Below, piece by piece: positions 50,781 through 53,203 of a DNA stretch of 64,000 nt. Source of the stretch: a virus (taxonomy: Duplodnaviria; Caudoviricetes); the IMG/VR virus record IMGVR_UViG_3300021431_004083, positions 64,001-128,000 of that record. One strand, written 5' to 3'. Under the pieces are notes generated by a model. That model saw only the letters and a program-made list of their open reading frames with translations. It was not told the DNA's origin and did no database searches. Position 1 is the stretch's first letter; the number at the start of each line of letters is the position of its first letter. Position numbers and translations under genes: made by a program.

Positions 50781-51269
50781 ATGCCTGTCTTATTTGTAAA
50801 AAATACCGTAACAGAAAAAACAATCGAGTCCATACTCAAACCTATCAATAGCTTCTGGACATACACAAGCCTTACGGATGTTGTGCAATCCAACGATAGC
50901 AGACTCGACAAAGCGCGTGATTTCGCGGCTATCACCTTCACAGACGAAAAAGATTGCGCTTTCATCGCGGACATGCTGATGGCAGAAAACATACAGGTGT
51001 TCCTGACCTTACCCGTCACCGCCGAAAGCACATACACAAACATATCAAACGACAAAAAAGCCAATATATCCTACTGGGACCATCTCGATAATATTGCCGA
51101 GGACTTCGTACAAAACCTTTTGTATGAATGCTATGACAAAGATACACATGCACAAACACCTTTGTCAGAAGAAGACAGGCAATACGTCCTGAAAGCGGCA
51201 CTTGAAGCCGCCATTGAAAAACTGGAAGACCTCAAAAAGGAATTCCCGTTTATGGATATTCCGTCCTAA
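50781..51269 (+). CDS. Hypothetical protein
   Basis: Start MPVLF after AAGGAGG. Confidence 0.7.
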   Translation: MPVLFVKNTVTEKTIESILKPINSFWTYTSLTDVVQSNDSRLDKARDFAAITFTDEKDCAFIADMLMAENIQVFLTLPVTAESTYTNISNDKKANISYWDHLDNIAEDFVQNLLYECYDKDTHAQTPLSEEDRQYVLKAALEAAIEKLEDLKKEFPFMDIPS

Positions 51270-51276
51270 AAAACAT

Positions 51277-51548
51277 ACGAGGGATGTAGGCTTAGAGGCA
51301 GCCATCATCTAAGGAGTAAGACGCCGGGATTGCGTGTAGTGAAGGTCGGGGAAACCGACACAGCGTGCACGCGGTGGTGATGAGAACACTTAAAGCGATA
51401 ACGTGTCGCTAAACGGTATCATCACCATTGTCAATTCGTCGCTGACGAGCACGGCATAGCAGTAATGAGCGACTGTAATCTATCTGCTATTGCGACACAC
51501 CCTACAGTCGGTAAGAGTCTTTTTGGCGTAACAGCACACCTCGTACCA
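51277..51548 (+). ncRNA. CCA-ended ncRNA containing a split mimic of 23S rRNA H43-H44 (uL11 / GTPase-associated centre)
   Basis: GATGTAGGCTTAGAGGCAGCCATCATCTAAGGAG (51283-51316) and GCGTAACAGCACAC (51526-51539) match 23S nt 1056-1089 and 1091-1104; closed by ACGAGG/CCTCGT plus ACCA; structured ~200-nt insert. Confidence 0.75.
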
Positions 51549-51572
51549 TTATTTCCAAAAAGGAAGGTATTC

Positions 51573-51830
51573 ATGACACGTACTGTGACATATACATGTG
51601 AAGTCTGCGGACGTCAAAGCGGAAGCGCAATTGACATTATAAAATGCGAATGCTCCCATCTTGGAATAACCGTAGACCAACTAAAAGAATGGAAGCTGCT
51701 GAAAGGCGCTGTCCGAATGACAAAAACACATGCAACAACAGAGCAAGTTATTAAAGACGCCATCAAAAATCTGAATGACTTCGAAACAAAACATCAGCTC
51801 ACAGGAAAAACTGTACCCAACCTATGTTAA
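51573..51830 (+). CDS. Small Zn-binding protein (CxxC...CECxH), paralog of 55898-56179
   Basis: YTCEVCG...DIIKCECSHL; RBS AGGAAGG. Confidence 0.7.
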   Translation: MTRTVTYTCEVCGRQSGSAIDIIKCECSHLGITVDQLKEWKLLKGAVRMTKTHATTEQVIKDAIKNLNDFETKHQLTGKTVPNLC

Positions 51831-52050: not shown

Positions 52051-52470
52051 GGGCCTGCTTGGTTTCGACAGGCTATACGAAAGAATCTATCACGCACGTG
52101 TCCCATCGCGTACGGGGAAACAAAAAATAAACGACACTAATACTGTTGTACTTCATCCCGCATTCTCCGCTGCTTGCGCTCGCGCTGCAGCCTGATTGCA
52201 TTACGGATACCAAAACGGCACGTCCGCTGTTTGATAAGGCCTGAGGTTCGAAGATAAACAGCACACAGTTTCCTGTTTCTGCAAAAAACAGGTGGTGGAG
52301 TGATGAAGAAACCCTTCATCCCTAAACGGCTGATTGCGCCGTACGTCAATTCGTAAAGAAAACGCCGTCCGTCTGACACGGTAATAATCTAAAAGCTCAG
52401 ACTATTGCGTAAGTATGATATTTTCAAGTAGATAGTTTGGACACGGGTTCGACTCCCGTCAGGTCCACCA
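52051..52470 (+). ncRNA. ssrA: tmRNA (SsrA); tag (A)DTNTVVLHPAFSAACARAAA
   Basis: GGGCCTG/CAGGTCC-ACCA with G3:U; 5' GGTTTCGAC; 3' GGACACGGGTTCGACTCCCGT; tag ORF 52133-52195 after ATAAAC, ending in Ala-Ala-Ala. Confidence 0.93.
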
Positions 52471-52651: not shown

Positions 52652-53203
52652 ATGCCGTTAGAAGCAATCCGTCGCATCGACGACCTCGGACGAATTGTCG
52701 TTCCGAAAGATATAAGAAAAAGATTAAACCTCGAAGAGGGAGACACCGTATCCCTCGAAACAACCAACGACGCGCTTATCATCAAAAAACATTCCGTGAT
52801 AGGCGAAATCACGAAAAAGGCACAGGCTTGTATCGACGCACTGTCGTTCTCAACAAAGAGTATCGTCATTGCTACTGACAAAAACATCATCACAAACGTA
52901 GCAGGCTTATCAAAACGGAATCTCCTTGAGATGAGCATCTCCGACAGGCTCAAAGAGCTCATCAAAAATAACAAAAAGGGATACCGTCACACACCGACAG
53001 ATGAACCTATGCCCGTGATGAAAAACTCTGCAATGCCTTACGTCAAAGCAACGGCTGTAATCTACGATAAAGCGCTGCTGCCCGTCGGGTGCGTGGCAAT
53101 CATCACGTCAAATAAAGCGGAACTGTCGTTGGGTATCACACCCGCCGAAGATGCGTTACTGAACAACACCGCTGACACCATCACACGGCTCATAAGGGAC
53201 TAA
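52652..53203 (+). CDS. spoVT: SpoVT-like regulator (AbrB N-domain + GAF-like C-domain)
   Basis: IRRIDDLGRIVVPKDIRKRLNLEEGD, IIKKHSVIGE, VIATDKNIITNVAG; 183 aa. Confidence 0.82.
   Translation: MPLEAIRRIDDLGRIVVPKDIRKRLNLEEGDTVSLETTNDALIIKKHSVIGEITKKAQACIDALSFSTKSIVIATDKNIITNVAGLSKRNLLEMSISDRLKELIKNNKKGYRHTPTDEPMPVMKNSAMPYVKATAVIYDKALLPVGCVAIITSNKAELSLGITPAEDALLNNTADTITRLIRD

Follow-up and report, generated by a model that had tools for sequence, protein, structure and literature searches.

The 64,000-nt stretch of phage DNA analyzed here (the window), which spans positions 64,001-128,000 of virus record IMGVR_UViG_3300021431_004083, carries a conserved structured RNA gene that is predicted to reproduce the fold of the 23S rRNA GTPase-associated center (GAC; E. 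coli nt 1051-1108, the 58-nt uL11/thiostrepton fragment) outside any rRNA. The element lies at approximately 51276-51545 on the + strand in window coordinates. From sequence comparisons, we cautiously favor the view that it is a phage ncRNA gene whose product would bind uL11, as a putative decoy for the factor site of the ribosome. The virus record is a complete gut phage genome of 251,549 bp with terminal repeats, in which a model search found one copy of the element. Its parts are as follows.

51276-51282 (+): 5' strand of the closing stem (H42 equivalent, 23S 1049-1055), UACGAGG, pairing with 51539-51545
51283-51308 (+): G1056 and the H43 equivalent (1057-1081), placed by identity to E. coli 23S
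51288 (+): U1061A
51294 (+): A1067 equivalent
51309-51313 (+): 1082-1086 turn, CUAAG, with tertiary pair C1082-G1086, placed by the pair types across the family
51314-51317 (+): GAGU (1087-1090), the 5' strand of lower H44 with A1088; GAGU is conserved in relatives
51318-51521 (+): variable arm of 204 nt between 1090 and 1091, supported by its fold and by covariation of its basal stem
51318-51322 and 51517-51521 (+): basal stem of the arm, AAGAC/GUCUU
51522-51525 (+): UUUG linker of the three-way junction, UUUR in relatives
51526-51538 (+): upper H44 hairpin, GCGUAACAGC (1091-1100), and ACA (1101-1103), placed by the 12/14 identity to E. coli
51530 (+): A1095 equivalent
51539-51545 (+): 3' strand of the closing stem, CCUCGUA (1104-1110), complementary to 51276-51282 and supported by covariation
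51546-51548 (+): CCA after the stem, present in the window copy and not a family feature

An earlier note on this DNA had matched both halves of the element to 23S rRNA. Using the RefSeq genome sequence of E. coli (L001) as the reference, we obtained the same values: 51283-51315 is identical to nt 1056-1088 at 29/33 positions, and 51526-51539 to nt 1091-1104 at 12/14, with the A1067 and A1095 equivalents where the note had placed them. When the element was compared with 5426 complete E. coli genomes by blastn, the 23S rRNA gene was matched in all of them (87-89% over ~36 nt). On either side, the element is flanked by its 7-bp closing stem (51276-51282/51539-51545) and then by phage ORFs, with no contiguity with 23S H41 or H45 sequence. 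The window element folds with a z of about -3, and 0/200 shuffles fold as well. The minimum-free-energy fold of the arm contains three to four hairpins, among them the long hairpins that had been described from the sequence.

Relatives were collected with two pattern scans. The first, an exact pattern for the 27-nt H43 core in IMG/VR, gave 52 listed phage-contig loci, 51 of which are split, self-closed elements and one a contiguous 23S gene (L044). The second, a family-specific pattern for the 3' junction (UUUR-GCGUnnnAGC-ACAC), added many further loci as well as at least 12 in bacterial assemblies of several phyla. After de-duplication there are at least 121 distinct elements in phage contigs, cultured phages, and a few bacterial assemblies, all sharing one order of parts: closing stem, G/A1056, H43, the 1082-1086 turn, GAGU, arm, UUUG or UUUA, the H44 hairpin, and ACAC. 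The closing stem has a median length of 9 bp (range ~3-31 bp), and the arm, present in every member, has a median of 131 nt (22-365 nt). The window element carries the whole family signature (closing stem, H43, GAGU, arm, UUUR, GCGUnnnAGC, and ACAC). A covariance model, R1, built from 40 aligned relatives (alignment 1), matched the window over the full-length element (51270-51551) with 90.4 bits and an E value of 6e-31; R1 was built only from relatives, and at this score the match is far beyond chance. The family model also found the E. coli GAC itself, at 46 bits.

Among cultured phages, R1 recovered a full-length element in each of Pseudomonas pf16, Pseudomonas Milchi, Cronobacter GAP32, Pectobacterium CBB, and Xanthomonas XaC1 (82-117 bits). 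In these five genomes the annotation shows either a gap or small ORFs of doubtful standing at the site of the element; in pf16 it occupies the gap between tRNA-Asn and tRNA-Pro. Matches at the blastn level were found in Serratia BF, Xanthomonas XbC2, Erwinia Kaldavass, and several Erwinia pEa_SNUABM phages. The bacterial assemblies that carry an element are labeled Clostridiaceae/Ruminococcus, Flavobacteriaceae/Saprospiraceae, Acidimicrobiales, Neisseriaceae, and Pseudobdellovibrionaceae, and the MAGs among the carriers mostly lack rRNA. One Neisseriaceae MAG (G054) contains two copies, at C95:307-551 (85 bits) and C36:205-455 (65 bits). Four ncRNAs have been published for PA5oct, a relative of GAP32 (PMC7318152); a search of the PA5oct genome with the family model found no element.

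Genuine 23S pieces do occur in phage records. Besides L044, a match in Paenibacillus phage Pd_22F (MZ092003.1) was rejected as a family member, as L282:2365-2438 is a contiguous Firmicute 23S stretch in an unannotated region, likely host DNA or an assembly artefact. Such cases lend some substance to the idea that the window element is itself non-functional, as a captured fragment of host 23S rDNA or an assembly chimera, or that it is a cis-acting leader of the ORF at 51573-51830, which has a ribosome-binding site and begins 28 nt past the closing stem. The family data contradict each of these versions, however: there are more than 120 independent copies with a family-specific architecture and covariation, the element is present in finished genomes of cultured phages, and the downstream gene is not conserved. 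We regard this explanation as highly improbable.

The family structure was evaluated in two alignments. In alignment 1, 95.7% of cells at paired positions were paired compared to 73.2% in shuffles, there were 212 double-change cells compared to 63, and the covariation score was 0.584 compared to 0.136 (0/500 shuffles), with slid controls at or below 0.175. Alignment 2, of 85 further sequences, was fitted to the R1 model and is hence biased towards the modeled structure; it gave 93.6% versus 71.2% paired cells and 459 versus 149 double changes (0/500 shuffles). Changes on both sides were seen at all 8 modeled pairs of the closing helix, so the H42-equivalent stem that the earlier note had seen in one sequence both pairs (7 bp in the window) and covaries across the family. 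In H43, compensatory changes occur at 1057:1081, 1058:1080, and 1064:1074, and 97-98% of cells are paired at 1057:1081, 1058:1080, 1059:1079, and 1062-1065:1073-1076. The three basal base pairs of the arm covary (GC/AU/UA/CG), in line with the proposed AAGAC/GUCUU closure and with an insertion between 1090 and 1091, while G1087:C1102 and U1090:A1101 are paired in 99% of cells. The tertiary pair 1082:1086 covaries as well (U-A 47, C-G 20, A-U 9) and 1061 is A in 31% of the family; both substitutions in the window copy had been described as structure-preserving, and the family bears this out. Thus, homologues keep both halves and covary, in at least 121 elements and two alignments, and the reading of the element as a stand-alone structured RNA copying the H42-H44 uL11/thiostrepton domain is upheld by this covariation together with a conserved core.

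Positional conservation was scored on the half not used to find each element, with 77 relatives found via the other half. G1059, U1060, G1063, C1072, A1077, and C1079 were invariant in these relatives, A1084/85 and A1088 were invariant or nearly so, and G1071 was 97% conserved. In H44, G1091-C1100, C1092-G1099, G1093, U1094, A1098, and A1101-A1103 were invariant, while 1095-1097 vary. We take U1060, A1088, G1071/C1072 with G1091-C1100/C1092-G1099, and 1082:1086 to be the tertiary contacts of the published 58-nt structures; these nucleotides are invariant or 97-100% conserved, with 1082:1086 covarying. The contact tips are looser, with A1067 at 84%, G1068 at 69%, A1095 at 88%, A1096 at 74%, and 1097 free.

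Several features set the family apart from rRNA. The secondary structure, the tertiary-contact nucleotides, and the covarying 1082:1086 pair are common to the 23S GAC and the element, but the element lies outside rRNA, is closed by a short stem, and is phage-encoded among tRNAs. Unlike the 23S GAC, the family always has an arm between 1090 and 1091 followed by UUUR, has A rather than U at 1101 in every copy examined, and tolerates variation at the factor and thiopeptide contacts A1067, A1095, and A1096. Among 34 relatives found via the 5' half alone, GAGU is present in 32 and the linker is UUUG in 29 and UUUA in 3. GAGU is retained even where the phage infects Gammaproteobacteria, the rRNA of which is of the E. 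coli type and has GAAA. Since A1101, the UUUR linker, and GAGU in phages of Gammaproteobacteria argue for one origin, the family looks, from these sequence features, like a single lineage rather than the product of repeated capture from hosts.

The element resides in a tRNA neighborhood. Rfam identified six tRNAs and a tmRNA in the window, all on the + strand like the element, and no rRNA elsewhere in the 64 kb, in agreement with the surroundings described in the earlier note. Across the family, 75 of the 121 listed elements have a tRNA or tmRNA gene within 3 kb. All 475 of these genes share the strand of the element and none is on the opposite one; the median distance to the closest tRNA on that strand is 81 nt on the upstream side and 106 nt on the downstream side. 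Phage tRNA arrays and tmRNA thus have niche and strand in common with the element, and co-transcription is probable. No conserved protein neighbor emerged when ORFs within 3 kb of the 121 elements were clustered, the best cluster covering 6/121 loci. The window tmRNA is complete (52051-52470, 84.5 bits), encodes a 20-residue tag, DTNTVVLHPAFSAACARAAA, is located on the + strand 500 nt past the element, and has its own high-depth contig in RNA libraries.

This setting, and the CCA that follows the stem in the window copy, had led to the suggestion of a tRNA-like RNA with the processing, and perhaps the aminoacylation, of a tRNA. RNase P/Z cuts at neighboring tRNAs may help to release the element, but as a family feature the tRNA-like end was refuted: the stem is followed by CCA or NCCA in 4/120 relatives (3.3%), which matches the background rate of those flanks (2.8%). 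With 3-31 bp, the stems are unlike an acceptor, neither ARAGORN nor the Rfam tRNA model calls the element, and contigs from RNA libraries reach 51554 or beyond rather than ending at the CCA. A tRNA-like identity is therefore scarcely credible.

Parts of the locus were present in six animal-gut metatranscriptome runs, of which four were compared with the window. The run from the source sample contains a 276-nt contig corresponding exactly to 51279-51554 without differences, a run of a second study contains a 293-nt contig corresponding to 51286-51577, and a third contig likewise ends at 51554, although such contigs give no ends, strand, or level and are not proof of transcription, as DNA may be in the libraries. 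In both studies the element contigs are separate from those of the flanking ORFs. Uncovered stretches and summed depths were given no weight. We read the library contigs as a hint, and the element as probably expressed as a discrete stable RNA of ~270 nt.

Strain variants recovered from these runs also bear on constraint. The 273-nt element carries 1 change, compared to 14 in the 399 nt that follow it (p = 0.006) or to 12 in the 209 nt that follow it (p = 0.0003). Within the 204-nt arm there was 1 change, compared to the 14 in the next 399 nt. These counts offer modest support for constraint on the arm as well as the core in this lineage, with divergence along the locus being patchy.

The arm is otherwise the most changeable part of the family. 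The earlier note had described an insert of 200 nt, and a fixed domain of that size does not hold for the family: arms are hypervariable (22-365 nt), with 114 arms falling into 81 sequence classes, the window arm a singleton, and some arms bare 22-nt hairpins. A recurrent module was nonetheless found at the end of the arm in ~22 members, pf16 and Milchi included, with the form GNC-ACC-CCN-tetraloop-NGG-UAAG-GNC (L286:1300-1350 in pf16, L285, L094, L187, L197, L199, and ~16 more). Its tetraloops are GAAA, UAAC, or GAGA, AGUR usually stands just before it, and its helices covary around an invariant ACC/UAAG internal loop. The window has a loose look-alike of this module, GAC-A-CACCC...GG-UAAG-A-GUC, at 51492-51519. 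No convincing rRNA counterpart of the GGUAAG module was found, and blastn-short comparison of the arms with E. coli 16S and 23S rRNA gave no recurrent match other than the sarcin-ricin loop (SRL; 23S H95).

An arm that is always present, recurring modules such as the UAAG module in ~22 members, and constraint on the arm between strains of this phage would all fit a scaffold, in which the GAC module serves as a stable protein-coated handle for nuclease resistance or localization and the arm carries a lineage-specific function. However, 81 unrelated classes among 114 arms, some of them bare 22-nt hairpins, and family-wide conservation limited to the GAC core and junction are difficult to reconcile with a scaffold, and we consider it quite unlikely.

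Five long arms (L214/L289, L223, L271, L244) contain a hairpin with the SRL core GUACG(A/G)GAGGA, with stems that covary while their sequences differ. In a further arm, L107, the motif is present with no predicted hairpin around it. About 0.004 exact matches to the 11-mer are expected in the ~18 kb of arms examined, and ~5% of those arms carry the SRL. Three of the five matches (L287, L288, L290) of a pattern scan for the SRL plus the 3' half were dropped, as they have no 5' half. In this phage no SRL copy was found, matches in the window and the whole genome being at chance level. Translational GTPases dock at a site made up of the GAC and the SRL (PMC8661411). The SRL-bearing relatives suggest that the whole docking site is imitated.

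That a subset of members has both GAC and SRL in one RNA raises the prospect of a factor sponge, where the RNA, with or without uL11, would bind a translational GTPase or RelA/Rel directly and so alter translation or (p)ppGpp, uL11 not being the main target. Isolated GAC RNA binds translational GTPases and RelA weakly, however, and most members, the window element included, lack an SRL. The factor contacts A1067 and A1095 are free to vary, and loss of EF-G or EF-Tu would harm the phage too. For these reasons direct factor binding seems to us unlikely.

No uL11, uL10, or bL12 gene was found in this phage genome, and uL11 was absent from all 50 carrier genomes searched (0/50); therefore, any ribosomal protein partner must be the host's. 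A protein with a bL12-like domain is encoded in 4/50 carrier genomes (G008, G014, G046, G047; L307-L310), 3 of them above the Pfam cut-off, in a count that covers carriers alone. Given a strict fold core and H43 stem, relaxed A1067/A1095 tips, and no phage ribosomal protein, host uL11 is favored as the direct ligand. Judging from conservation, looser tips fit recognition of the fold by uL11 better than they fit a thiopeptide or factor-tip decoy.

In the uL11 decoy model, a closing stem of a few to ~30 bp would hold the copy of the GAC (the top of H42, H43, and H44), and the arm would branch off H44 between 1090 and 1091 at a three-way junction that contains the conserved UUUR linker. As the 3' strand has no unpaired nucleotide, the upper and lower parts of H44 could stack on each other, leaving the rRNA fold intact. 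Off the ribosome, the RNA would then present the uL11-binding surface, bind host uL11, possibly with uL10/bL12, and so stand in for the ribosomal factor-docking site as a decoy or sponge. One possible consequence is that uL11 is drawn off and RelA activation blunted; alternatively, a host or competitor factor that recognizes the uL11-GAC complex may be drawn off. Three considerations count against the model. A sponge has to obtain a mostly assembled protein in competition with tens of thousands of ribosomes, the exit of the arm might block the uL11 or uL10 surface, and an arm that is constrained and never absent speaks against a pure GAC decoy, as function may reside partly in the arm.

An RNA of this kind could instead be a substrate decoy, soaking up an enzyme (ADP-ribosyltransferase, nuclease, glycosidase, or methyltransferase) by which a defense system or competitor toxin attacks the factor site, and so shielding ribosomes much as phage tRNAs guard against tRNA-targeting defenses. 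The SRL, the other classic toxin target in 23S, is added in some arms. We know of no anti-phage system aimed at the GAC, but a GAC-modifying toxin does exist in Tre23, an ADP-ribosyltransferase that modifies H44 at nt 1095-1098 (PMC8661411). That H44 loop is the least conserved part of the element (A1095 88%, A1096 74%, 1097 free), which weakens the case. The element lives in tRNA arrays, and phage tRNAs are a documented form of counter-defense (PMC11555353). With hosts spanning many phyla, however, a universal rather than sporadic threat would be needed, and we judge a substrate decoy somewhat unlikely.

Returning to the uL11 decoy, we tentatively extend it, with confidence falling a little short of even, to large phages of hosts from many phyla: these may express, along with their tRNAs, a new trans-acting replica of the factor-docking site (the GAC, in some cases with the SRL) that captures host uL11 or a GAC-directed factor, such as the stringent factor or a defense enzyme, and thereby keeps phage translation running.

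No match of the family to a described RNA was found, in line with the earlier note, which had recognized no described family. A permissive Rfam 15 scan of 51100-51700 returned only chance-level GAIT and YrlB matches at E ≤10, with no match to group I/II introns, GOLLD, ROOL, or Y RNA, and Rfam scans of four cultured-phage loci returned tRNAs only. No account of an RNA of this kind emerged from full-text literature searches; the nearest topics were counter-defense by phage tRNAs (PMC11555353) and phage-encoded bL12 and other ribosomal proteins (PMC6375957). With no Rfam 15 family and no published description found, we consider the family probably new.

Among known systems, leaders of ribosomal protein operons (the L10 leader, RF00557, and the L1 site of the L11 operon mRNA) also imitate an rRNA site of a ribosomal protein off the ribosome. 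These are cis-acting, loose mimics upstream of ribosomal protein genes, whereas the element is free-standing and nearly a base-for-base copy, with no ribosomal protein gene near it, no uL11, uL10, or bL12 in the phage, and no match to an Rfam leader. Phage tRNAs work in translation, while an isolated rRNA domain cannot join the ribosome and thus can act only by binding. GOLLD and ROOL are, like the element, structured ncRNAs that are often phage-borne near tRNAs, and 6S and Y RNA resemble it in being mimics, but none of the four copies an rRNA domain and the element has no Rfam match to any of them.

If the proposed function is correct, the element would be the first free-standing mimic of an rRNA domain acting in trans, and a new form of viral interference with the translation apparatus beside the tRNAs, tmRNA, and ribosomal proteins that phages encode. 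The family is large, extends across phages of hosts from several phyla, and is unannotated in well-known jumbo phages, which makes it directly testable. It may bear on why big phages carry islands of translation RNAs, and on how phages handle the stringent response or ribosome-targeting immunity. As natural, self-folding GAC variants with tolerated insertions, its members should also be of use to structural work.

Three further observations concern the surroundings of the element and its relatives. The product of an ORF at 52652-53203 of the window combines an N-domain of AbrB/MazE type (Pfam E 5e-11) with a SpoVT C-domain (3e-10), which suggests a spore-forming Firmicute host. In three relatives (L003, L082, L205) the closing stem reaches ~31 bp; RNase III processing stems flank rRNAs, and by analogy these long stems recall them and may bear on release of the RNA. 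Finally, in three runs from two studies (X3, X6, X8), contigs such as one of 315 nt in X6 share with the window only the 32-nt H43 core (51284-51315) and have different, AT-rich flanks; these are probably family members of other phages in the same samples.
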